Below are positions 3,439-40,438 of a DNA stretch of 42,086 bases, piece after piece; the stretch's first letter is position 1; every line of letters begins with the position of its first letter. The notes beneath the pieces are model-generated. The model ran no database searches and was not told where the DNA came from. It was given only the letters and a program-made list of their open reading frames with translations. The stretch lies in IMG/VR virus record IMGVR_UViG_3300028559_000007; one strand, 5' to 3'. Position numbers and translations under genes: made by a program. The DNA is from an uncultured virus (IMG/VR IMGVR_UViG_3300028559_000007). Its lineage: Duplodnaviria > Heunggongvirae > Uroviricota > Caudoviricetes.

Positions 3439-4242
3439 ATGAAATATCTAAAACATTTCAAAATATTTGAATCACAAACATCTGATCATTGGGATGTATA
3501 TGATATATTTCAAGACTTATTTGAAGAGTTTTATTATGAATTGCCAGAATTTATAACTAAATATCCAAATCAACACGATATACAACTAGCAAGTCATAAA
3601 TATGGACAAATAATGATTTCTGATAATTTTGTATTTGGTGCTAAATGTTTACAGGTTAGAATAACTGATAATTATAGAGGACATACTATTAAACCAGGAA
3701 TGTTCAAAAACTTTGAAGGGTTACATGATGAGAAATATTCAGAGATGTTACAAGAATGTCATAATAGAGTTGTTTCACTTTTACATCCAGTTGAAACTAT
3801 TGTTGGATCAATTGGTAAATACACAATCGATTTAGATTTAGTATATTTTTATGAGAAACCAAATTTTAGTAGATGTGGTGAAGTTGAAATATATGGTTCT
3901 AATATTGGAATAAGATTAGAAAAATTAGGAATAAATTTATCATCAAATTCAAGGCATGATAATGGATTTCATTCTGATGGCTCTCCTTTGTATGCTGGAG
4001 ATATGTTTTATCTACTAGGATATTATGATTACGATTTTTATAAAGTAGAAAAAATATCTAGTTACAATAATGATACACCATTTGTTAAATGGGTTACTTC
4101 TGAGTGGCAGAGTGTTTGTAAGAAGTTAAAAATAAAAGAAGGTCAAAAATATAATAGGGAAAATCCAAAAATAACTGTTGCTGAATTTATGACTATACTT
4201 AAAAAAAATCAAAATAATTATGAAACATTTAAAGAAGTATAA
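3439..4242 (+). CDS. Putative capsid-internal protein (N-terminal CTS-like peptide)
   Basis: Starts MKYLKHFKIFES; TATATATA just upstream. Confidence 0.75.
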   Translation: MKYLKHFKIFESQTSDHWDVYDIFQDLFEEFYYELPEFITKYPNQHDIQLASHKYGQIMISDNFVFGAKCLQVRITDNYRGHTIKPGMFKNFEGLHDEKYSEMLQECHNRVVSLLHPVETIVGSIGKYTIDLDLVYFYEKPNFSRCGEVEIYGSNIGIRLEKLGINLSSNSRHDNGFHSDGSPLYAGDMFYLLGYYDYDFYKVEKISSYNNDTPFVKWVTSEWQSVCKKLKIKEGQKYNRENPKITVAEFMTILKKNQNNYETFKEV

Positions 4243-6896: not shown

Positions 6897-6996
6897 AGTC
6901 AGGTGGCGTAATGGTAACGTGTCACCTTCAAAGTTTGAGGATAGTGATATCCTCTCTATGATAAAGAAGTTACAGGTTCGAATCCTGTCCTGACTA
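6897..6996 (+). tRNA. Atypical tRNA-like RNA (disrupted anticodon stem, extra hairpin)
   Basis: Acceptor AGTCAGG/CCTGACT, D arm GCGT-AATGGTA-ACGT, T arm ACAGG-TTCGAAT-CCTGT; middle non-canonical. Confidence 0.75.
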
Positions 6997-20138: not shown

Positions 20139-23100
20139 TTAATTTTTAAATTTTCTTGATTGTTGGGTTCGAGGTTTATAGGTAAATAGTATTTTTTGAT
20201 TTTCTATTTTTTTTAATCGGTGGTTGGAGATGGCTATTTTATGTGAATATCTGCTTAAATATTCTCTTGTATCTTTTAACTGTTGTTTATTTAATTTAAT
20301 AGATGATAAAAACTTATTTAAGAACTCTTTAAAAGCTTCAACAGATGTTTCTTTATTAAAATCTTTGCTTTTAATAAAGTATCCAATTAACTTTTTGAAA
20401 TTATGTATCTTTAAATCCTTTTCAACTCTTTTATCTAATCTATTAATATAAGTATATTCTGCTCTTGTCTCAAGTAAATTTTTAAATAACTTTTCATAAT
20501 ATGGTTTATCAAATTTATAAACAATAGGAGCTTGTTCTTCCATAGGAAATAATTCATAGTCTGTGAATAAGTTATTTTTTAACCAATTATATGCTCTTAA
20601 TTCTTCTTCTTTAGTTAAAAATATACCAACACATGTTCTACCATTTGAAGTATCTGAATTACATAGATGTCCTAATAGTTTATTCATAGTCTTTCCATTA
20701 AGCTCATAATCTAATTCCTTGAACTCATCTAATTTATCAAGCTTAACTAATGCAAAAAAGAATACCAATATTGATCCATCAACCTCATGCCATGCATCAT
20801 TAATCCACTCTATACCCTTAGCCTCTTGAAATACTTTGTAAATATCACTTAATTCTTTAGCATTTATTTCATACTCATCGCTATCTCTAAGATTTCTATT
20901 TCTTTGTGATCCCATTCCACTGTACCATGGTCTTATTGCCCTATTTTTATTGATATCTTTAATTTTTCTACTATTTATAATTCTATCCTTTTGTGATTGA
21001 TAGGAATCTGGTATAGTATCTAAATACTTAATATCAATAGAATCAGAGTCTTCAATTATTTTGAGAATATATGGATACAAGTTATCTAATTTGAAGTGTG
21101 TAACTATTTCAACTTTAGCTTTACTCCTATCTGAAACACTAACCATATCATCGACTATTTTTAAAATATCAACTTCTGTTTTTAAACCTTTAGATATTAA
21201 GTAATCAAACACATCAGTTACTTCTGGTTCAGAATATCCTTTTAAATTAAATTGTTTACATAATTCAATAGTATCAAACAAATCAAAATTATAGAACTTG
21301 ATAAGATTTAAAGCTCTTACTCTGTTCCCTTTATCATCAGAAGAATATGAAGAATTAGTTCCACCAGCAATTAATTCATAAAATTCTCTTACTTTTCTCC
21401 ATTCACTTTTTCGTTTTTTATCACTATCAATATAACTCAAATCAGTTGGTTTAGTTTTCGGTAAATCATAATTTTCATATGATTGTTGTCCATTAAAAAC
21501 AACATTTATTTTATTTTTACTACACTCATCGATTGTTAAACCTACCTCACTTAAATACATTGGACTAAAACCATCAGGTAATCTATTATTATATTTTAAT
21601 ACTTCTTCTTTAGTGAATTTGGTTTTATCAATAAATGTGACCGATAAATAATCATTAATAATATATTTATTAATAATTTCAATAGCTTGATCTTTTGTTA
21701 GATAATAAAATTCACTTGAATTCCATTTTTTCTTATGTGTAAGTATATAATCAAATGGTATTATTAAATTATATGTTTTGCTCTTATAATCATGGTTAAT
21801 TAAGTTTGGTAATTTGATTTCATCTAACATCAGATTATACTTCATTACGTTATCTACTCCTATTATATTAAGTTCATGTATATCTCCTATTGAAGTTTTA
21901 CCTTTAATAAGTTCATCAATATCAAAATGTTTTAATAAATCCTTTAATTCAAATTTATCAAATCCAATATTTCTAATTTCATCTTGTGTTAAATGTTTTA
22001 ATTCACTTGATTTGAAAGATGTTTTATGTTTCATTATATCTGATTTAGTATAACCCATTTTTAATAAATCTTCAAATAATAATATTTTAAATTGAACTGT
22101 AATACCTTTTGAATCTAAATCTTCTTTTCTAAAATATCGAATAGAATTATAATCTAATGCCTTATCCCCCTTTACAAATGCTGTTAATATTTCATCATCT
22201 GATATACCAAATAACATTCTTAATTCTGGTATACTATAATCATATGATTTTTCTAATTTTGGATAGAGTTTCTTTGCATCAAATCCTCTTTGTGATAAAA
22301 TCTCAATAAGTGAAGAAATTGGTAAGTATGAATCATCTTTTAAATGACCTGTTATATATCCTTTTGGTCCGATTGTAACACCAATTATCGAATAGTTACT
22401 CCATATTGGCATATCTGTTAACCATATCATATATTGACTTGTTCCAGTATTAGGTACATATTGTTTAAAAGTTGAACTATCAGTAATACACCATGATGTA
22501 CCACGTCCTAATGTACTTACAACAGATGAACTTATAGCTCTGATTATAATTAAATCATGTTCTTTATCTAAAATAATAGGTAAAAGTTCACCTTTATGAT
22601 ATCTTTGAAATCTCTTTGTTATATCATTAAAATCTATTTTTTTAGTGTTACCTTCAATGAATGATTTTATTGAATCGATTAAAATCTGTTTATTTTTATA
22701 TCTTGCAACTTTTGCAAAATAAGCAGAGTTGTTTTTAACATTGTATAGAGTTTTTAGAAGTTGAATTATATTAGTATTATTTATATCTAATAGTTTTCTT
22801 TGTGTAGCTGGAAACTCATCATAACACTTCTTAACTTCTAATTTAGTTTTGGTTAGTTCAATATCATCTAATAAGTTTTCGTAAGTATCATATTGTACTA
22901 AGTTTTTAGGTAAAGCTTTAATTAATTGATTATAGTTTTTTATAAGATTAACTATGTTATTTAAATCAGTTAAGGGTATATTATTTTTATACCTCATTTT
23001 AGTGAACCATCCAACATATCCTTCATTACCTTTAAATAGATTTCTTATGGTTTGGTAATCTTTATCTTCTTCGGATATCTTTAATTCTTTTAAAATAGAT

Positions 23101-23150
23101 TTAGCTTGTTGGACACTTTCAAATATTTTATAATCTAATAAAAATTTCAT
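20139..23150 (-). CDS. Large putative capsid-internal protein (CTS-like); C-terminus apparently replaced by a foreign patch
   Basis: Starts MKFLLDYKIFES; AATATATA upstream; GTSWCI motif; same-frame orphan tail at 20010-20123. Confidence 0.8.
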   Translation of the reverse strand: MKFLLDYKIFESVQQAKSILKELKISEEDKDYQTIRNLFKGNEGYVGWFTKMRYKNNIPLTDLNNIVNLIKNYNQLIKALPKNLVQYDTYENLLDDIELTKTKLEVKKCYDEFPATQRKLLDINNTNIIQLLKTLYNVKNNSAYFAKVARYKNKQILIDSIKSFIEGNTKKIDFNDITKRFQRYHKGELLPIILDKEHDLIIIRAISSSVVSTLGRGTSWCITDSSTFKQYVPNTGTSQYMIWLTDMPIWSNYSIIGVTIGPKGYITGHLKDDSYLPISSLIEILSQRGFDAKKLYPKLEKSYDYSIPELRMLFGISDDEILTAFVKGDKALDYNSIRYFRKEDLDSKGITVQFKILLFEDLLKMGYTKSDIMKHKTSFKSSELKHLTQDEIRNIGFDKFELKDLLKHFDIDELIKGKTSIGDIHELNIIGVDNVMKYNLMLDEIKLPNLINHDYKSKTYNLIIPFDYILTHKKKWNSSEFYYLTKDQAIEIINKYIINDYLSVTFIDKTKFTKEEVLKYNNRLPDGFSPMYLSEVGLTIDECSKNKINVVFNGQQSYENYDLPKTKPTDLSYIDSDKKRKSEWRKVREFYELIAGGTNSSYSSDDKGNRVRALNLIKFYNFDLFDTIELCKQFNLKGYSEPEVTDVFDYLISKGLKTEVDILKIVDDMVSVSDRSKAKVEIVTHFKLDNLYPYILKIIEDSDSIDIKYLDTIPDSYQSQKDRIINSRKIKDINKNRAIRPWYSGMGSQRNRNLRDSDEYEINAKELSDIYKVFQEAKGIEWINDAWHEVDGSILVFFFALVKLDKLDEFKELDYELNGKTMNKLLGHLCNSDTSNGRTCVGIFLTKEEELRAYNWLKNNLFTDYELFPMEEQAPIVYKFDKPYYEKLFKNLLETRAEYTYINRLDKRVEKDLKIHNFKKLIGYFIKSKDFNKETSVEAFKEFLNKFLSSIKLNKQQLKDTREYLSRYSHKIAISNHRLKKIENQKILFTYKPRTQQSRKFKN
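20175..20264 (-). mobile_element. Short IS91-family (Y2) transposase-like fragment
   Basis: EYLSRYSHKIAISNHRL...ILFTYK matches, from memory, the YLxRYxHxxAISNxR catalytic motif region of IS91-type transposases. Confidence 0.55.
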
Positions 23151-28015: not shown

Positions 28016-28556
28016 AAATTCCTTCTACTGTTATATCAGGATTTTTTCTTAAAATATCTTTATTATCTCTATTAAAGTTTATACAGAATTTACCAAATTC
28101 AATTAAATCAGTTTCACCACTTTGAATTTGATATTCTCCACCATTTACTACTACTCCATACATTAACATTGCTTCTTTTACAGCACGTCTATTAGAATAA
28201 ACATCACCATTAACTAAATTGAGGTGGTTATCTATAATATTATCAGCAGTAAGATCGTATTTAACTTGTAGTTTAGGTAGTGGTGAATTGGGATTGTTAG
28301 TAGCTACTAATTTTCTACATCCTCCACAACTACCAACATTTTTTACAAAAGGTGAGATATATTGGTTATCTCCTAATTTAACCCCGTGATCTTCATTTGA
28401 TATAATTTCTCCTAAACAAATAAAGTAACCATCGGTTCCACCGGGTTTATATGGAATCAATTCATCTATGTAATAATAGTCAAATCCATCTACGGTAGCT
28501 TTGGAACATATTTGTTCTTTATCAGTTGTAAGGTCTTTTAGAAGAAATGTGTTCAT
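27978..28556 (-). CDS. Hypothetical phage protein
   Basis: ORF after TATATTTG box; CRKLVATNN motif. Confidence 0.75.
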   Translation of the reverse strand: MNTFLLKDLTTDKEQICSKATVDGFDYYYIDELIPYKPGGTDGYFICLGEIISNEDHGVKLGDNQYISPFVKNVGSCGGCRKLVATNNPNSPLPKLQVKYDLTADNIIDNHLNLVNGDVYSNRRAVKEAMLMYGVVVNGGEYQIQSGETDLIEFGKFCINFNRDNKDILRKNPDITVEGIFEVYKQKKQTNL

Positions 28557-28601
28557 GATTATCTTATTTAAACCAAATATACAATAATTTTTTGTATAAA
28601 C

Positions 28602-28638
28602 AAAAAAAAGGGATCCTCTGAAGAAGATCCCTTTTTTT
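28602..28638. terminator. Intrinsic (bidirectional-type) terminator closing the ncRNA operon
   Basis: A8-GGGATC...GATCCC-T7. Confidence 0.85.
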
Positions 28639-28677
28639 ACCCAACCTACAGTTGTTCCACAAACACAAACAACAATC

Positions 28678-28770
28678 TTAATTTTCTTTTTCTTTTTTTA
28701 TATGATGCTTTGCAAAAGCGAAGAATGCTCCACCTAAAACTAATATTGATATAATAATAAAGGAATCCAT
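28678..28770 (-). CDS. 30-aa single-helix membrane peptide
   Basis: MDSFIIISILVLGGAFFAFAKHHIKKEKEN*. Confidence 0.5.
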   Translation of the reverse strand: MDSFIIISILVLGGAFFAFAKHHIKKEKEN

Positions 28771-28783
28771 TTAATAAATTTAG

Positions 28784-28855
28784 TAGCGGGGATGGGATTC
28801 GAACCCATGGCCTCAAGGTTATGAGCCTTGCGAGCTTCCTCTGCTCTACCCCGCA
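28784..28855 (-). tRNA. tRNA-Met(CAT), initiator-like 1:72 mismatch
   Basis: TGCGGGG...CAAGG-CTCATAA-CCTTG...ATGGG-TTCGAAT-CCCAT-CCCCGCT-A. Confidence 0.9.
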
Positions 28856-28860
28856 ATATG

Positions 28861-28993
28861 TAGCCCGGACAGGGTTCGAACCTGTGTTTCCATTGGAATG
28901 GTGTCCTAAACCTTCAACCTTTGACGACTCGATGAAGAGCTTTGAGGGGTTTCAAGTTCTCTGTGAAGAGATTGTCCACTAGACGAACGGGCC
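28861..28993 (-). tRNA. Glu/Asp-framework tRNA-like RNA with ~65-nt D-loop insertion and collapsed anticodon loop
   Basis: GGCCCGTTCGTCTAGTGG[insert]AGGAC-A-CCATTCCAATGG-AAAC-ACAGGTTCGAACCCTGT-CCGGGCTA. Confidence 0.75.
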
Positions 28994-28996
28994 AGA

Positions 28997-29077
28997 GATG
29001 TTTGGTTGATTTTCACAACAATATGTAATTGAAACTTATTAGGTTTCTATCAGGTAATTAATCCTGAAAACAACATC
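28997..29077 (-). ncRNA. Cloverleaf-shaped spacer RNA without tRNA consensus bases
   Basis: Closing GATGTT/AACATC plus three hairpins. Confidence 0.5.
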
Positions 29078-29081
29078 ATAG

Positions 29082-29152
29082 TAGCCGTTAAGGGATTCGA
29101 ACCCCTGTTTCCCCCTGTGATGGGGGCGTCCTATCCGCTAGACGAAACAGCC
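29082..29152 (-). tRNA. Asp/Glu-framework tRNA-like RNA with 6-nt non-canonical anticodon loop
   Basis: GGCTGTT/AACGGCT acceptor; CCCCC-ATCACA-GGGGG; AGGGG-TTCGAAT-CCCTT. Confidence 0.75.
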
Positions 29153-29156
29153 ATTT

Positions 29157-29246
29157 AAATTTAAAAGTTTATCTCAACTTGTAACTTTCCAAAGTCCGGT
29201 TCTAAGTAATGATTGAGACCATACCGGAGTTAAAACTTTTAAATTT
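29157..29246 (-). ncRNA. Structured spacer RNA with 14-bp closing stem and likely pseudoknot
   Basis: AAATTTAAAAGTTT/AAACTTTTAAATTT; TCCGGT/ACCGGA; loop TCTCAA complementary to TTGAGA. Confidence 0.5.
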
Positions 29247-29248
29247 AG

Positions 29249-29314
29249 TGGGTCAGACTGGACTTGAACCAGTAATCTTTCTTTCGAATGCATTAACATT
29301 ATGCTATCCAGCCC
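29249..29314 (-). tRNA. 66-nt mini tRNA-like RNA lacking an anticodon
   Basis: D arm GCAT/ATGC, TTC-GAAA-GAA mini-hairpin, ACTGG-TTCAAGT-CCAGT. Confidence 0.7.
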
Positions 29315-29325
29315 AAAATAGTTTG

Positions 29326-29433
29326 CCTTTATTACAAGATCACCTCTGATCAAAACCAAAATACCGATGAACTTAATCATTACTACACGTAGTGTATTTC
29401 GATAACTAACAAATAAATGTTAGCTGGAAAAGG
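29326..29433 (-). ncRNA. Multibranch structured spacer RNA
   Basis: CCTTT/AAAGG closing; AGCTAACA/TGTTAGTT, TACAC/GTGTA and GATCA/TGATC hairpins. Confidence 0.45.
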
Positions 29434-29439
29434 ATTTAG

Positions 29440-29505
29440 TGGGGTAGACTGGGTTTGAACCAGTAATCTTTCTGACGAACGCATTAACCTTATGCTATCC
29501 ACCCC
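29440..29505 (-). tRNA. 66-nt mini tRNA-like RNA lacking an anticodon (paralogue of 29249)
   Basis: GGGGTGG/CTACCCC acceptor, TTC-GTCA-GAA, ACTGG-TTCAAAC-CCAGT. Confidence 0.75.
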
Positions 29506-29514
29506 GTTTATGTT

Positions 29515-29549
29515 TTACAAATATACGGTGAATTTTTCATATCACCAAA
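29515..29549 (-). promoter_or_regulatory. Strong Bacteroidota-type promoter of the tRNA-like operon
   Basis: TTTGGTGATATGAAAAATTCACCGTATATTTG; near-identical copies at ~32356, 32496, 32798 and 33154. Confidence 0.8.
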
Positions 29550-29679
29550 CTATCATTTAATAAATTTCTCTCTAAGTTCCTCACATAAGTATTTTATCAT
29601 AACTAAACCATATTGGTGTTTAGTAATACGACTTCCATCTTTATTTGATAGTTCATACATAGGAATTAATATTTCAGCT

Positions 29680-30090
29680 TCACTTTCGATATACTGAATC
29701 ATCTTTTGATCCCTTTTTAGTTATCCCACTACATTGATCAGATGAAGATGATTTTATTGTATTGTTATTATTTTTATCTTCACAACAATTATTTCCAACA
29801 GTTTTATAATGAATTTTACATACACAACTATTTGATTTACTTCTGTTACATTCTTGACATAATAATTGTATATTATTTATCTCACTTGTACCACCACAAG
29901 AATATGGTGTAATATGATCATATTCTAATTCTTTAGAACTTCCACAACATTTGCAAGATCCACCATCCCTTACGAAGACAATTTTTTTTGTATCTTCTGA
30001 AATATATCTAGAATTACCATTTACTTGAGCAAAAGTAAAACTTGTTAAGCACATCATTAGTGCCAGCATCATAAATTTAATTTTATTCAT
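29680..30090 (-). CDS. HNH endonuclease domain protein with N-terminal signal peptide
   Basis: RDGGSCKCCG...EYDHITPYSCGG...NIQLLCQECNRSK; leader MNKIKFMMLALMMCLTSFTFAQ. Confidence 0.8.
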   Translation of the reverse strand: MNKIKFMMLALMMCLTSFTFAQVNGNSRYISEDTKKIVFVRDGGSCKCCGSSKELEYDHITPYSCGGTSEINNIQLLCQECNRSKSNSCVCKIHYKTVGNNCCEDKNNNNTIKSSSSDQCSGITKKGSKDDSVYRK

Positions 30091-30098
30091 CTTTAGAG

Positions 30099-30704
30099 TT
30101 ATTTTCTTAAATGTCTGAATGAATCTAAATTTATTACTAATCCAGTTGTTGTCAATAATGATCCCGCAATCATAAATCCTGTACCTAGATTACTATCATT
30201 TAATTTAGAATAGTTTTGATTAGTTGTTGAGAATGAATTACTAATAAATAATAATCCAAGTCCATTTAATAAAGTACCAGCTATAATAAGATGATTACCA
30301 GTTCTATGTTGTTTTCCAAATTTATCAATATTTTTAAATCTAAGATTTATTTCAGTATCTGAGAAATTTCTAATACCAATACCATTTTTTATCTTATCCA
30401 CATGACCATCAGGTAAGAACATTTGAATCTCTGTTATATCTGTTAACAGAACAGTTCTGGTCTCATTATAAAAATTTTTATAGGTACATGAACCAGGTTG
30501 ACTACTATAAATTTTATGAGTAATGCTTTCACTGTAAACCATATTGGGTACTACACCATCTTTTGCAAATTTTTCAGAACATTTTCTATAACAAAAGTCA
30601 CAATTTTGTAGTTTATACCACTTACCTACTTCAAATGTATCTTTTTGAGAAAAAGAAATGTTAGTAAAGCATGTTATCAATATTAGTGTTAATAGTTTTC
30701 TCAT
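30099..30704 (-). CDS. Exported/membrane protein
   Basis: Signal peptide ending FSQ; two Gly-rich C-terminal hydrophobic helices. Confidence 0.7.
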   Translation of the reverse strand: MRKLLTLILITCFTNISFSQKDTFEVGKWYKLQNCDFCYRKCSEKFAKDGVVPNMVYSESITHKIYSSQPGSCTYKNFYNETRTVLLTDITEIQMFLPDGHVDKIKNGIGIRNFSDTEINLRFKNIDKFGKQHRTGNHLIIAGTLLNGLGLLFISNSFSTTNQNYSKLNDSNLGTGFMIAGSLLTTTGLVINLDSFRHLRK

Positions 30705-30804
30705 ATATTTTAAGTTGTTTATTTTACAAATATAAGGTTAAATTTTACATTATTTAATTTATTTTTACATTATACGGAGTTGTCATATTTTAATATATAG
30801 ATAT

Positions 30805-31416
30805 ATGAAGAAATGTAATAAATGTAATGAAGAAAAAGACTTATCTCTATTTTATAAGAGAAAAAATGGATATAGAAATATATGTAAAACTTGTAATAGA
30901 GAACTTTCTAGAGAGACAAAGAAAAAATATATGATTAATTATAGAATTATAAATTCTGAAGCTTTAAAAGAATCTCATAAAAACTATGAAATAAATAATA
31001 AAGATAAGAGAAAATCTTATTTGGAATTAAATAAGGATAAGATTAGGGAAAGAAGTCGAAACTATCAAAGATTAAAATGTAAAACTGACCCCTTTTTTAA
31101 ACTTAAAAAGAATGTTAGAAACCTTATTTATAAATCTTTTAGTGTAAATAAAATTTCTAAAAGAACAAAAGATATACTTGGATGTTCTTTTGAAGAGTTT
31201 AAAATACACTTGGAATCAAAATTTGAACCTTGGATGAATTGGGAAAATAGAGGTAAATATAATGGTGAATTAAATTATGGATGGGATATTGATCATATTG
31301 TACCAATATCAAGTGCAAAAAATGAAGAAGAATTAATAAGACTAAATCATTTTAGTAATTTACAACCTCTATGTAGTAAATTTAATAGGGATATTAAATG
31401 TGATAAAACTGTTTAG
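30805..31416 (+). CDS. HNH homing-endonuclease-like protein with N-terminal CxxC finger
   Basis: CNKC...CKTC; WDIDHIVPIS...HFSNLQPLCSKFN. Confidence 0.8.
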   Translation: MKKCNKCNEEKDLSLFYKRKNGYRNICKTCNRELSRETKKKYMINYRIINSEALKESHKNYEINNKDKRKSYLELNKDKIRERSRNYQRLKCKTDPFFKLKKNVRNLIYKSFSVNKISKRTKDILGCSFEEFKIHLESKFEPWMNWENRGKYNGELNYGWDIDHIVPISSAKNEEELIRLNHFSNLQPLCSKFNRDIKCDKTV

Positions 31417-32350
31417 AAGACTGAGAATACATCTTTTTGTGATTATCTTTTAAAGTATTATACTGTAATTGGAATACAGATTCACTTTGTTTCCACTATC
31501 TTTTGAATAGTAATAATCAATCCCGGTTAGTTAGACTAACCACTCCTTAAGTTGTTAAATACTCTGTGTATACTCACTTCTATCTAACTTTGCGGGTTAG
31601 TTCAGGGTTCGACCCCTTATAGAGTTTTCCACACAATCACGTCTACCTTTCGGGTTTTCGTGGCTACGAACTACTCGTAACTATGTAGGGACCTTTCTTT
31701 AACAACTAAATGACACTTTCGATTTAATTTTTAGATTTTTACATTTCAAAAGTAAATTTTAGTGCTATGGATTTATATCAAACCAGTGGTCATTTTATAG
31801 CTTCGAAACCTTTTGAGTCACAAAATACTATACTGGTCTGTGTGATACCTCTATCACGATCTTTTAAGATATCCTCACTGCGATTACTCCCGTAGGTTTC
31901 ATCTCCTCCCTTGGTAGAGATTTAGTGCCTTACAACAGCACCACCTGTACATAAGTTTGTCTTTCGACTTTAAGACACCTTTTAGATTGGATAACACAAT
32001 AATAATAACCGGTTAGCCATTATTTCTTGTAATATATCCTACGAATTATTCCTGTTCCCCTTCCGGGGTCAACTAAATGATCCATATCACCTAGTCATAC
32101 TTTCATTTGGTCTACAGCGTAAGCCCTCGACTACTTAGAGAATATGGTATTCCGCTTGTCTACTTGAGCTCCTTTGGAAAGGAGCCGCAAACCCGTTTAG
32201 CAAGGGGCCCACTTTATAACCCTTTCGGGTATTATTTAACGACTATAGACAGCCGCACTTCCACATCAGGACGAACCTTGATAGGTTGTGAATATCATTG
32301 AATGTTTCACAACATTCTATTTCAAAGAACATAAATCGTTTCCGATTTGA
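31417..32350 (-). ncRNA. Giant structured ncRNA (~930 nt), GOLLD-like
   Basis: No credible ORF, raised GC, many GNRA-capped hairpins on the - strand, long-range stems, own promoter and boxA leader, near a tRNA cluster; family assignment unverified. Confidence 0.7.
32319..32348 (-). promoter_or_regulatory. boxB-like hairpin plus boxA antitermination leader
   Basis: AAATCG-GAAA-CGATTT then TGTTCTTTGAAAT. Confidence 0.65.
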
Positions 32351-32541
32351 TTTTACAAATATAAGGTGAATTTTTCATATCACCAAATTTTTTGTTAGAT
32401 AATTTATATTATTTTTATCCAAAAAGTTTAAAATAAAATTAGATTATTCGTTTACCATCTCTGGTGGGAAATCCCCTTCTTTTCTTTCTATCTTACAAAT
32501 ATACGGTGTATTTTTCATATCACCAAATTTTTCATAAAATA

Positions 32542-32752
32542 TTTTTACGTTGTTAGAATATCAATATAATCTACCATCTTAGTTATAAGCGGACTTATAG
32601 TAAGTTTATAGATAGTCCCGACACTACTAAATCATCGGTTCTAAGTGATTAGAAACATATTTCTATGTGTAGCACATCCTCACGGATCTTTAAGCCAAGG
32701 TCAACTATTATAATGTTTTCTACCGTCAGAATATATTCTAACAACGTAAAAA
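32542..32752 (-). ncRNA. ~210-nt RNA closed by a perfect 20-bp stem
   Basis: TTTTTACGTTGTTAGAATAT (32542-32561) / ATATTCTAACAACGTAAAAA (32733-32752); internal hairpins; dedicated promoter. Confidence 0.6.
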
Positions 32753-32760
32753 AGTTTAAA

Positions 32761-32791
32761 ATTTCAAAGAGCGCAAATCACTACCGATTTG
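32761..32791 (-). promoter_or_regulatory. Second boxB-like/boxA leader
   Basis: CAAATCG-GTAG-TGATTTG then CGCTCTTTGAAAT. Confidence 0.65.
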
Positions 32792-32835
32792 ATTTTACAA
32801 ATATACGGTGATAATTTTTAACCACCAAATTTTTG

Positions 32836-33132
32836 TTATAAATTTCTTAATTTTTTTATTAGAATTAGTAAGAATTCAATATCTTCATAAGCTGATCCAG
32901 GATTATCATAATAAAAATCAGATTTAATTTTTTCAGGGAGATTAATTTCTGTATTTAATTTCCCAAGGTGTTAGTTTTTCTTCCATAATTACTTAAATTA
33001 ATTCGTTTATTTTTTTTTCTCTCAAATCTTGTTTTGTAGAATAATCTATTACAATATTATCAGAAAGATATTATTATCAATTTTAGATACAATCAAATCT
33101 TTGAGTGAATCCCAAATATCTTCACCAGTCAT
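32836..33132 (-). pseudogene. Two small frameshifted genes (one C-tagged, DLREKKINELI*)
   Basis: Starts at 33132 and 32986 run into early stops while a shifted frame continues. Confidence 0.45.
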
Positions 33133-33390
33133 ATATTTTTAGTATTTGTTCTACAAATATACGGTAACTATTTCTATCCACCAAATTAGTCCTTATAAAA
33201 GTTTACTAATCTATATCATAGTTTGGAAACTTCTTCCCGAATATTTGACAACTGTTTTATTAAGTTATCTAATTCTTTCAAGTCAGCTAATCTTAACAAA
33301 AAAGTATCATTAAAATGTAACAACAAACATTCGTCAAACTTATCACCATCTTGGTCGTGCATATCAATGCTAAATCCTACTTCAATCATT

Positions 33391-33693
33391 TTATTTTTTA
33401 CTATTTAAAACTCTCTCATGTATTCTCTCACACCTATTTAGTATTTCTTGTAAATTATTAGAAGTTGGTTTATTAACCTCTTTTAAGAATTCAAGCTCTG
33501 GTTGATATTTTAACAGAATATTTTTAAGTTTGGGAGTAATTGTATTACAAACAAGAACTGAATATAATGAATGTAATCTTTCTGAAAGAGATTCAGAATC
33601 AAAATCGTGTGTAAATGGATCAATATCTTTAGCAGACATTGTTTGTAAATTTTCTGAATTATTCAAAACTTTTTCTAAGAAATTCATTTCCAT
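33391..33693 (-). CDS. Hypothetical protein
   Basis: ORF downstream of CGTATATTTG promoter. Confidence 0.7.
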   Translation of the reverse strand: MEMNFLEKVLNNSENLQTMSAKDIDPFTHDFDSESLSERLHSLYSVLVCNTITPKLKNILLKYQPELEFLKEVNKPTSNNLQEILNRCERIHERVLNSKK

Positions 33694-33784
33694 ATTTTTA
33701 AATTGTTTGTTCTACAAATATACGGTGAAAAGTTTAAAAAATAAAATATATTATTGAAATAATATATACTATAAAAATAAAAAG

Positions 33785-34012
33785 ATGAAAAATAAATACA
33801 TACAAAGTTTCAACGAAAATCAAGAAAAATTGACTGGTGTTAGTGATAGTGATTTTTTACTTAAAACAATTGCTGATAGAATACGAAATAATGTTGATAT
33901 AATTGAATATGCTGATGGTAGAGAACCAGAATTGAAGATTGAAGATTGTATTAAGATAATAAAGGATGATTTAAGTAAATATTCAATTACCTTAGCTAAA
34001 AAAGACATATAA
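33785..34012 (+). CDS. Putative capsid-internal protein (CTS-like)
   Basis: MKNKYIQSFNEN; AATATATA upstream. Confidence 0.7.
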   Translation: MKNKYIQSFNENQEKLTGVSDSDFLLKTIADRIRNNVDIIEYADGREPELKIEDCIKIIKDDLSKYSITLAKKDI

Positions 34013-34943: not shown

Positions 34944-35387
34944 TTAAAATTTTAAAATACTCTGAATAGTTGCTAGTGATACATTAAACATAGATGCTAA
35001 CTTTCTATAAGAATAATTACCCGTTTTATGTAGATCTCTCACCTCATTTCTTTTATCATCCGACAATCTAAAGAGTAATCCAGTATCAAAAGCATGTCTC
35101 AGGTTTTCATAATGTGAAACCCATTCTAAATTATCAGAACAGTTATTTTTCTTATTACCATCTTTATGATTAACTTCTGGTTTATTATCAGGATTATTAA
35201 TGAATGATTTAGCTACTATTCTATGTAATGAATATATTTTGTAGTCTAGTCTTATAGTAGTATAACCTTTTGTTTTTGAACTAATAGAATATATTTTCTC
35301 CATATCACCAATTATCTTTTTAACCCTAGCTAAATTACTAACCCAATATTTCCCATTGAATCCATCAATTTCTTTCCAAATTTCCAT
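34944..35387 (-). CDS. NUMOD4-HNH homing endonuclease with C-terminal HTH
   Basis: EIWKEI.G...Y.VSN; HRIVAKSFI...VNHKDGNKKNN...NLEWV...EN..HA. Confidence 0.9.
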   Translation of the reverse strand: MEIWKEIDGFNGKYWVSNLARVKKIIGDMEKIYSISSKTKGYTTIRLDYKIYSLHRIVAKSFINNPDNKPEVNHKDGNKKNNCSDNLEWVSHYENLRHAFDTGLLFRLSDDKRNEVRDLHKTGNYSYRKLASMFNVSLATIQSILKF

Positions 35388-38872: not shown

Positions 38873-40438
38873 TTAAGAAAATGATATAAATCCATAATTA
38901 GGAAGTTGTGAACCAACATTCCAATTAAGTGTATTTGTTAAAGTACTACCAAATGACCAAATAGTTTGTCCTAGTGAACTATTAATTCTAGTTCCATCAA
39001 CGTAGACTATTGATTGAGTTGCTCCTTGGTCTAAAGTCCATATTGCTCGAACAGTAGCATCATTAGAGGTCATCGTGATTCTTTGTAAATTAGTTCCTAA
39101 AAGATTGACAGATGTTGTTGTTCTATAACTAACAGAGTTTTGTAATGTAATTGTTCCCGCAACAGAACATAATAGATTAGCACAAGTCCATCCAGCAGTA
39201 CCTGTAAAAACTGTAGTTCCGTTAAGTGTTAAGTTATTTGTTACAATTAAAGGTAAATTTATAGTGTTAGTACCGTTATTATTGAGTAAGAAAATAATAT
39301 TATACCAATTAATATTAGAAATATTAAGAGTATAAGTTGCAACTGTAGGTGAAGCAACCCCAAATGTAGTTGTAAACAATCCCGGATTTACTATTCCTGC
39401 TGTATGTGTAAAAGATTTACCAGCTCCTCCAAAAAAAGAATTACTCACAAAAGTATAAGAACCAGAAGTGTTGATTTCAAAATCAACATTTACTGAATTA
39501 CCTATTGTAAAATTAATATTACCAGAACCGATTAGCGAAACTATTCCAGTTCCTGTTAAATTAGCATTAGTTTGTGAAAAGGTAAAATTACCTCTGGCTT
39601 TTAATCTAAATCCAGCACTATTAAGAACGCAAGATGTACCACCATTAGCTCCCATAGTTACATTATTAAAATTAGCATCGCTAATTAAAGTAACATTTGT
39701 AGCAAAAGTTTGAAAATAGTTTGAGAATAATTGGTTTTGTAAATCTAAACTACAAGTTCCTAAAGTATTCAATTGACCTGATGCTGAAATAACTCCACTG
39801 ACATAGGTTAAAGAACCATTAATAATAGATAAATTAGATACAGTGGTTGTGTTGGCTCCTGAATCTATGCGAATTAAAGCAGAGCAGTTAACTCCACTTG
39901 CCAAAGTTCCCGTTCCAGTCATTCTAAAAGTAACTGTAGGTGCTGTTAAAACTTGAGATATCAACATACTACCTGTTAAAGTTATAGTTGATCCACCTGC
40001 GATTAATATAGGATTTCCTCCTATAAAGTTAGTGGTAAAAGAAGTGATGCTCCAATTATCATAAGTATGTGTAAACCCAGCAGTACCATTTGAATTATAA
40101 ATAATAGGTTGATTAAAAGCTAATCCATTAGCGGTAAAAGATGCTGTAACTGTGCTATTTATAGTAATTCCGGCAGAACCTGCTATTGTAACAGTAGTTC
40201 CTAAATTAACACCAGAACCTCTTATTGTTAGAGTATTGGTGAATGTAGCAGTTCCGGAATAACCTGTAAAGTCTAAATTAGTACAAGTTGCAGCAAATGT
40301 AATAGTTACATTCTTATTTCCATTAGCACCAGTGCCTGGAAATAAGGCATTTGTAGCCAAAGTTGGGGCTGAAAGTGTATCCCAGTTTGCTCCTTCACTC
40401 CAATTATTTGTAGATCCATTTCCTGTCCAAGTTGGCAT
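38873..40438 (-). CDS. G/S/T/N-rich beta-solenoid protein (virion fibre/adhesin-like)
   Basis: WTG...NWS...NW N-terminus, passenger-like beta repeats, few charged residues. Confidence 0.7.
   Translation of the reverse strand: MPTWTGNGSTNNWSEGANWDTLSAPTLATNALFPGTGANGNKNVTITFAATCTNLDFTGYSGTATFTNTLTIRGSGVNLGTTVTIAGSAGITINSTVTASFTANGLAFNQPIIYNSNGTAGFTHTYDNWSITSFTTNFIGGNPILIAGGSTITLTGSMLISQVLTAPTVTFRMTGTGTLASGVNCSALIRIDSGANTTTVSNLSIINGSLTYVSGVISASGQLNTLGTCSLDLQNQLFSNYFQTFATNVTLISDANFNNVTMGANGGTSCVLNSAGFRLKARGNFTFSQTNANLTGTGIVSLIGSGNINFTIGNSVNVDFEINTSGSYTFVSNSFFGGAGKSFTHTAGIVNPGLFTTTFGVASPTVATYTLNISNINWYNIIFLLNNNGTNTINLPLIVTNNLTLNGTTVFTGTAGWTCANLLCSVAGTITLQNSVSYRTTTSVNLLGTNLQRITMTSNDATVRAIWTLDQGATQSIVYVDGTRINSSLGQTIWSFGSTLTNTLNWNVGSQLPNYGFISFS

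Follow-up and report, generated by a model that had tools for sequence, protein, structure and literature searches.

GOLLD, a large phage-associated RNA found near tRNAs, was reportedly described in 2009. Structures are available for the env-38 GOLLD (PDB 9MEE) and the Streptococcus agalactiae GOLLD (PDB 9L0R) (Table 1 in PMC12990946). According to the cryo-EM paper, 14 copies of the 833-nt env-38 GOLLD build a cage of D7 symmetry that is 380 Å across and contains no protein; the 5′ domains make up the caps, the 3′ domains make up the rings, and an unresolved linker faces inward. The S. agalactiae GOLLD, of 700 nt, assembles as a 12-mer according to the published work, and the variable linker of GOLLD sometimes holds a tRNA. 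The cage papers treat function as a matter of hypotheses only, namely, the encapsulation of tRNAs, ribosomes, or other cargo. ROOL resembles GOLLD in being a large phage-associated RNA near tRNAs that forms RNA-only cages, as stated in the cryo-EM paper.

Here, we analyzed a 42,086-nt stretch of DNA from an uncultured virus (referred to as the window). We consider it very likely that positions 31418 to ~32350 on the minus strand are a complete GOLLD RNA gene of ~915 to 930 nt in an uncultured lake-water phage, and just as likely that this phage is distantly related to “huge” phages of 635 to 642 kb. The RNA has a two-domain architecture, with a 5′ domain of ~490 nt, an A+U-rich linker, and a 3′ domain of ~420 nt, and it is a genuine, full-length, somewhat divergent member of the known family. 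Like the solved GOLLDs, it has an end-to-end match to the 3′ domain, a less conserved upstream 5′ domain, an A+U-rich variable linker, and an invariant A-rich loop on a covarying stem; the phage context by tRNA genes and the lake-water origin are also shared. Unlike the solved GOLLDs, it is longer than 833 or 700 nt, carries one more hairpin in its 5′ domain, contains a unique insert of 19 nt in a 3′-domain loop, is not adjacent to tRNA genes (the array is 1.9 kb away), and has its own copy of a promoter-like motif. As a discovery the locus carries little weight, the GOLLD family being known and its cage structure solved, as the cryo-EM paper describes.

A GC-raised block without credible ORFs is a GOLLD RNA

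The initial annotation had described a GC-raised, hairpin-packed block of ~930 nt without a credible ORF at 31417 to 32350 and had offered two readings, a GOLLD-like RNA or a new class missed by covariance models. Composition and coding content agree with this description. In 200-nt windows, GC is 0.305 to 0.45 across 31400 to 32399; in the flanks, it is 0.175 to 0.25 at 30600 to 31499 (coding) and 0.21 to 0.245 at 32300 to 32599 and 32700 to 33199. The block holds just two ORFs of at least 40 aa, at 31767 to 31895 (plus strand, 42 aa) and 32107 to 32301 (plus strand, 64 aa, TTG start), and both are on the strand opposite to GOLLD.

The Rfam GOLLD model RF02032, which spans the conserved 3′ half of GOLLD only, matches 31418 to 31840 on the minus strand. 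The match is untruncated, with model positions 1 to 416 of 416 aligned to the window, and scores 276.2 bits (E-value of 6.5e−78), compared to a gathering score of 150 bits. The model ends at 31418 and the RNA is expected to start at ~32350 to 32352, close to the ends that had been proposed for the block.

At the gathering score, Rfam has six matches in the whole window, one to GOLLD and five to tRNA, and none to ROOL (presumably RF03087), OLE, group I/II intron, RNase P, or tmRNA models. In a laxer search of 28500 to 33800 with E-values of up to 5, which returned 14 matches, GOLLD alone was found within the block, with no match there to the intron, RNase P, tmRNA, ROOL, or OLE models; this is the comparison by which the initial annotation had suggested checking its reading. 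ARAGORN did not find a tmRNA, and an nhmmer profile search put the GOLLD copy number in the window at one. ROOL, unlike the GOLLD in the window, has an unrelated sequence and fold. With the longest ORFs, both on the opposite strand, being 42 and 64 aa, no other Rfam family in the block at E-values of up to 5, and a negative ARAGORN search for tmRNA, the chance that we are looking at a protein-coding region, an intron, an rRNA fragment, RNase P, or tmRNA is practically nil.

The 5′ domain is assigned by homology and contiguity

Rfam matches only the 3′ 423 nt of the RNA, and the 5′ 490 nt are without a catalogued family, which could speak for a new giant structured RNA class unrelated to GOLLD. 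However, the 5′ part has homologues in other GOLLD loci, where they stand directly before the 3′ domain. An nhmmer profile from 8 homologues matches 32316 to 31841 at an E-value of 5.4e−119. A scan of IMG/VR with an invariant motif of the 5′ half (GGTGGTGCTGTT, 14 to 26 nt, CTACCA) gave at least 120 loci. Using nhmmer profiles for both domains, built from the first 8-sequence alignment, we found the 5′ domain in 84 of 127 viral loci among the matches listed; in 80 of the 127 it is directly followed by the 3′ domain, and the 43 loci without the 5′ domain among these listed matches are chance pattern matches.

This contiguity in the listed loci, together with the nhmmer match and the covariation described below, marks 31841 to 32330 (minus strand), at the level of sequence homology, as the GOLLD 5′ domain of a widespread viral subfamily. 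This domain is the cap domain in the solved structures. Moreover, the published description of GOLLD, in the cryo-EM paper, already includes a less conserved 5′ domain. The RF02032 score (276.2 versus 150 bits) and the homology of the 5′ part to other GOLLD 5′ domains therefore decide in favor of the GOLLD-like option, and the “new class” option falls: the covariance model does not miss the block and is itself matched from end to end, leaving a class unrelated to GOLLD with a vanishingly small probability.

The 5′ half is 66 to 69% identical to that of its closest relatives and 57 to 69% identical over all 40 aligned homologues. The extra 5′-domain hairpin in the window is common to the closest relatives only (8 of 40 homologues). 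At the 5′ edge of the GOLLD body, the motif GTTCTTTGAA (32321 to 32330, minus strand) is conserved in the 41-sequence alignment. It occurs exactly in 39 of the 127 loci (among the matches listed), with a second copy elsewhere in some of them, and, as judged by eye without a tally, mostly lies near the 5′ edge of the 5′-domain match.

The fold is under selection over its whole length

Removing sequences that were more than 93% identical to one already kept reduced 51 full-length homologues (among the matches listed) to 40. With the window added, the alignment has 41 sequences and 1106 columns at 60% mean column identity; over the full length, too, the window is 57 to 69% identical to the other 40 sequences and thus no more than 69% identical to any aligned homologue. 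A first RNAalifold run predicted 192 pairs, and compensatory double changes occur in 138 of these; a second run, on the 41 sequences, gave 235 pairs in 38 helices. Over these 235 pairs, 94.2% of the cells hold standard pairs, with a mean of 76.4 in shuffles and none of 500 shuffles reaching the observed value. Covariation among homologues, which the initial annotation had named as a check, is evident as well: both sides change in 158 of the 235 pairs (shuffle mean, 123.9), and the covariation score is 0.560 versus 0.216 in shuffles. When partners were slid by 1 to 3 columns, pairing dropped to 38.4 to 42.7% and the covariation score to 0.083 to 0.120, a comparison that favors the real over the slid versions because the structure was derived from the same 41-sequence alignment.

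Both domains contribute to the covariation, with helices 2 to 21 covarying in the 5′ domain. Selection acts on the fold over the whole length of the RNA, and within the subfamily the two domains are equally tightly constrained. Of the 235 consensus pairs, 211 are kept in the window (210 to 231 in the homologues), including 114 of 124 in the 5′ domain and 94 of 107 in the 3′ domain. Several of its 24 “broken” pairs are register shifts, and the hairpins concerned pair in their own sequence, CTAAC/GTTAG being an example.

All four hairpins that had been named from the sequence are present on the minus strand. The tetraloop hairpins ACCCGAAAGGGT (32230 to 32219), CCCCGGAAGGGG (32068 to 32057), and GTCGAAAGAC (31968 to 31959) sit on covarying helices 3, 11, and 17, respectively, and the hairpin CTAACCCGCAAAGTTAG (31600 to 31584) lies in the helix-33 region, where its register is shifted in the alignment. 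We also considered a 5′-3′ closing contact (helix 1) between the CUUU of GTTCTTTGAA and AAAG near the 3′ end. The helix does not covary, the first of its pairs (C-A) does not form in the window, and we rejected it. The 41-sequence full-length alignment could be used to extend the Rfam model beyond the 3′ half.

Elements of the 3′ domain

The 3′ domain (31418 to 31840, minus strand), the part modelled by RF02032, corresponds to the ring domain. Inside it lies the A+U-rich variable linker (31715 to 31781, minus strand), which has low posterior probability in the Rfam alignment and differs in length and sequence among homologues. Neither ARAGORN nor Rfam finds a tRNA within this linker.

The linker is closed by a 7-bp helix between AAATGAC (31789 to 31795, minus strand), a bulge strand of the first 3′-domain hairpin, and GTCATTT (31708 to 31714, minus strand). 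This helix, 31795 to 31789 with 31714 to 31708, crosses the outer stem of the same hairpin. Its cells are paired in 99.7% of cases and both sides change in 6 of its 7 pairs; in the outer stem that it crosses, both sides change in 6 of 9 pairs, and the two helices together are 99.5% paired. The positions of the crossing helix are shown as unpaired in the Rfam structure line, and the helix is probably already part of the published P1-P27 scheme of GOLLD.

A long-range helix between 31550 to 31559 and 31698 to 31707, noticed earlier from the sequence, proved to be the bracketed helix of the Rfam GOLLD model. Its 5′ strand is AGTTGTTAAA (31698 to 31707) and its 3′ strand is TTTAACAACT (31550 to 31559), both on the minus strand and assigned to helices 24 and 25. 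It encloses the multihairpin core of the 3′ domain and covaries, with changes on both sides in 8 of 10 pairs.

The 19-nt insertion, which falls into Rfam insert states, forms a small extra hairpin in a 3′-domain loop (31462 to 31480, minus strand) and, of the 41 sequences in the alignment, only the window has it. The first 3′-domain hairpin has a CAAAA loop that is invariant in all 41 sequences, and its stem (helix 22) changes on both sides in 12 of 14 pairs. In env-38, according to the cryo-EM paper, an inter-chain A-minor bridge is formed by a conserved A-rich loop whose variable stem covaries. By analogy with this description, the CAAAA loop would be the equivalent of the published A-minor bridge loop.

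A repeated promoter-like motif and a leader precede the RNA

The initial annotation had assigned the RNA its own consensus promoter at 32356 to 32387. A promoter-like motif, TTTGGTGATATGAAAAATTCACCTTATATTTGTA, is indeed present at 32354 to 32387 (minus strand), with a −35-like hexamer (TTGGTG), a 17-nt spacer, and a −10-like hexamer (TATATT, 32363 to 32358), and it is real as a repeated element. Because its −35-like hexamer is TTGGTG, it is not a sigma-70 consensus, and a simple consensus scan of the region gives a 9-of-12 site only. The 34-nt form of the motif, TTTGGTG-N13-CACC(G/T)TATATTTGTA, has five copies in the window, compared to 0.02 expected, and none of 100 shuffles reaches five. GGTG and CACC form an inverted repeat inside the motif. 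All copies are on the minus strand (29516 to 29549, 32354 to 32387, 32494 to 32527, 32796 to 32829, and 33152 to 33185), and all five precede noncoding units: the tRNA array, directly preceded by the 29516 to 29549 copy, GOLLD, and three stretches without an ORF of at least 40 aa. A shorter core, C-N-TATATTTGTA, has 18 sites versus 4.4 expected, on both strands and also before protein genes. The long form may be a separately regulated class for RNA genes.

The motif at GOLLD ends 3 to 5 nt ahead of the expected RNA start, which lies 6 to 8 nt past TATATT. The same type of motif precedes tRNAs and GOLLD in two relatives, the LR745206.1 locus (L001) and locus L004, and LR756502.1 has a 61-nt match to the promoter-leader region of the window. 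We infer that the motif acts as a promoter.

At the expected transcript start, a leader hairpin (AAATCG-GAAA-CGATTT; 32333 to 32348, minus strand) has a predicted energy of −4.9 kcal/mol, which is not better than that of shuffles. A comparable hairpin precedes tRNA in L001 and L004, and in many phages a hairpin followed by (A/C)GTTCTTTGAA is found at the 5′ edge of GOLLD. L001 has this combination at 2881 to 2890 and 3440 to 3449 of the locus, before a tRNA and between a tRNA and GOLLD, and the combination might mark sites of processing between RNA genes. At the other end, GOLLD abuts the stop codon (31416) of a convergent endonuclease VII-like gene, and a site scan found no terminator-like site past the GOLLD 3′ end.

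Another possibility is that transcription begins at promoter copies farther upstream and yields a long multi-RNA precursor, which is later cut up and has GOLLD at its end. Copies of the motif are found on the same strand 140 and 442 nt before GOLLD, no terminator-like site separates them from it, and the hairpin with GTTCTTTGAA recurs between the tRNA and GOLLD in LR745206.1. In relatives, GOLLD follows a tRNA without an intervening promoter, and processing from a longer precursor would therefore be normal for the family. However, a full copy of the motif stands immediately before GOLLD in the window, and the two modes can coexist. We regard the long transcript as a possibility of some weight, although an unlikely one, and favor transcription of GOLLD from its own copy of the motif.

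Relatives, genomic context, and habitat

Among 50,697 records of a phage collection, two have DNA similar to the window, LR745206.1 (634,780 bp) and LR756502.1 (642,428 bp). Both are ~70% similar to the window over both GOLLD domains, and their GOLLDs score 287.3 bits (420876 to 421280 in LR745206.1) and 275.3 bits (434685 to 435091 in LR756502.1). LR745206.1 also shares the promoter type with the window. Unlike in the window, GOLLD directly adjoins tRNA genes in both records, which are unannotated. Both come from uncultured huge phages, 635 and 642 kb in length. An exact 23-mer of the 3′ domain is found in five IMG/VR loci, all five of which have a GOLLD (265 to 291 bits). In relatives, a tRNA that is 75 to 87% identical to the tRNA-Met of the window directly precedes GOLLD, and env-38 GOLLD was found downstream of a Met-tRNA, according to the cryo-EM paper.

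In the window, the tRNA array (28784 to 29504, minus strand), with four Rfam tRNA matches, is located 1.9 kb downstream of GOLLD, and three protein genes lie between. HNH endonuclease genes are found at 29680 to 30090 and 34944 to 35387, and the endonuclease VII-like gene is at 30805 to 31416. This arrangement raises the question of whether the window holds a decaying, nonfunctional GOLLD relic in a rearranged tRNA region: two of the three intervening genes are endonuclease-like (29680 to 30090 and 30805 to 31416) where relatives have GOLLD abutting tRNAs, the count of 211 of 235 pairs lies close to the minimum among homologues (210 to 231), and the 19-nt insert is unique. Against this, the full, untruncated model match at 276.2 bits is similar to the 265 to 291 bits of the relatives, several of the “broken” pairs, such as CTAAC/GTTAG, are register shifts, and the RNA has kept its own copy of the promoter-like motif. 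On balance, decay is very improbable, and we continue to treat the RNA as an intact GOLLD.

The window consists mostly of orphan genes; of 43 ORFs tested, 8 have a Pfam match and 6 have a PHROG match. The 1003-aa protein at 20139 to 23150 (minus strand) has matches in the phage collection only to LR745206.1 and LR756502.1, at 32 to 34% identity, and the 521-aa protein at 38873 to 40438 has none in this collection. Within the 1003-aa protein, the first 322 residues resemble an LR745206.1 protein (32% identity), and the final 60 give a match to Y2_Tnp, a family of putative transposases (E-value of 1.4e−7).

Words sampled from 31300 to 33300 were present at fractions of 0.27 to 0.98 in 12 lake-water metagenome runs from 12 study codes, one of which may be where the window itself came from, runs with fractions below 0.2 being left out of the habitat reading. 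We also scanned bacterial and archaeal genomes with the 5′-domain motif, which gave at least 120 loci. None of the 120 loci listed has GOLLD domains by nhmmer, apart from one 45-nt match with an E-value of 6e−4, and none of 20 of the listed loci has any Rfam match. We rejected these as GOLLD hosts and regard them, among those listed, as chance pattern matches.

A paper on phage genomes of 634 to 735 kb predicts Bacteroidetes hosts for the largest genomes. The word GOLLD does not occur in the main text of that paper, and the phrase “GOLLD RNA” is absent from the papers listed by a literature search on GOLLD with jumbo or huge phages.

RNA-library data

Four RNA-library runs were compared with 30700 to 33500. 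In these runs, no contig that is at least 95% alike spans more than 36 nt of the GOLLD block, and the flanking coding DNA is likewise bare, with zero cover at 30700 to 31545 and 32768 to 33143. Lack of cover in these runs speaks neither for nor against expression. Pieces around 31934 to 31983 are 90 to 95% alike and probably stem from other GOLLDs. Two short pieces of high depth, at 32144 to 32172 and 32208 to 32243, are 93 to 97% alike.

Putative assembly and role

We hypothesize that GOLLD would be transcribed from its own copy of the phage promoter type that also drives the tRNA array and that the transcript would begin with the short leader hairpin. By homology to the two GOLLDs solved by cryo-EM, copies of the RNA could then come together, with no protein involved, as two stacked rings that make a closed shell. 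In this shell, the 3′ domains would form the rings, the 5′ domains would form the caps, and the variable linker would point inward. A homo-oligomeric cage is what the two-domain layout and the invariant CAAAA loop, both as in the solved GOLLDs, lead us to expect, and on this analogy the RNA in the window probably forms one. We do not carry over the subunit number from the solved GOLLDs because the RNA exceeds them in length and carries two further elements; either the extra 5′ hairpin or the 19-nt insert could change the assembly.

What might such a cage do? As a joint and rather doubtful guess, GOLLD might work with the phage tRNAs and the takeover of translation during lytic growth, perhaps by holding or scaffolding cargo that is the size of a tRNA or related to ribosomes. 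The promoter and leader in common would tie GOLLD to the phage tRNAs as a coregulated set, and the promoter type shared with the tRNA array fits a translation takeover but proves nothing.

Noncoding neighbors

Upstream of GOLLD lies a noncoding unit of ~215 to 250 nt (~32793 to 32545, minus strand; structured RNA, 32750 to 32556), here called unit B, which is preceded by the motif copy at 32796 to 32829. Its leader is identical to that of GOLLD at 28 of 34 positions. The body folds into several hairpins closed by a perfect 20-bp helix, with a minimum free energy of −60.8 kcal/mol (z score of −3.3; 1 of 200 shuffles folds as well). Rfam gives no match to unit B in the search of 28500 to 33800 at E-values of up to 5. 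Two JGI metagenome contigs, which differ in their flanks, hold copies with one difference in ~210 nt. In addition, three freshwater RNA-library runs with three study codes yielded contigs that cover unit B (2 differing letters over 151 to 181 nt), cover that falls short of proving transcription because RNA libraries can contain DNA. An exact 26-mer of unit B has no locus in viral contigs, a promoter-anchored scan returned 69 loci, 4 with the full promoter and none with unit B, and nhmmer over 198 loci found only the two near-identical metagenome copies.

Unit B may represent a structured RNA not described before or else a mobile insert of recent origin. We see a slim chance that GOLLD, the tRNA array, and unit B are a promoter-defined set of RNA genes in which unit B, as a new class, works with the GOLLD cage. 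If this were true, unit B would be a cargo, an assembly factor, or a regulator of the cage, and the common leader (the hairpin and GTTCTTTGAA) would be a joint processing or loading signal. Unit C (32492 to 32395), in contrast to unit B, has a fold no better than that of shuffles (z score of −0.12).

The tRNA array includes two paralogous tRNA-like genes of 64 to 65 nt, at 29441 to 29504 and 29249 to 29313 (minus strand), with 88% identity across 72 nt. Both have an acceptor stem, a D arm, and a T arm and are without an anticodon loop; a 3-bp stem with a 4-nt loop takes the place of the anticodon arm (UUC-GUCA-GAA and UUC-GAAA-GAA, respectively). Their Rfam scores (34.4 and 32.2 bits) are just over the tRNA threshold, and ARAGORN calls neither. 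They are incapable of decoding and therefore might be decoys or processing signals. Also on the minus strand, 28858 to 28995 has acceptor and T-arm sequences around an insertion of ~65 nt and is called a tRNA by neither Rfam nor ARAGORN. At 6897 to 6996 on the plus strand, a tRNA match of 48.7 bits carries a 42-nt insert in the anticodon region.
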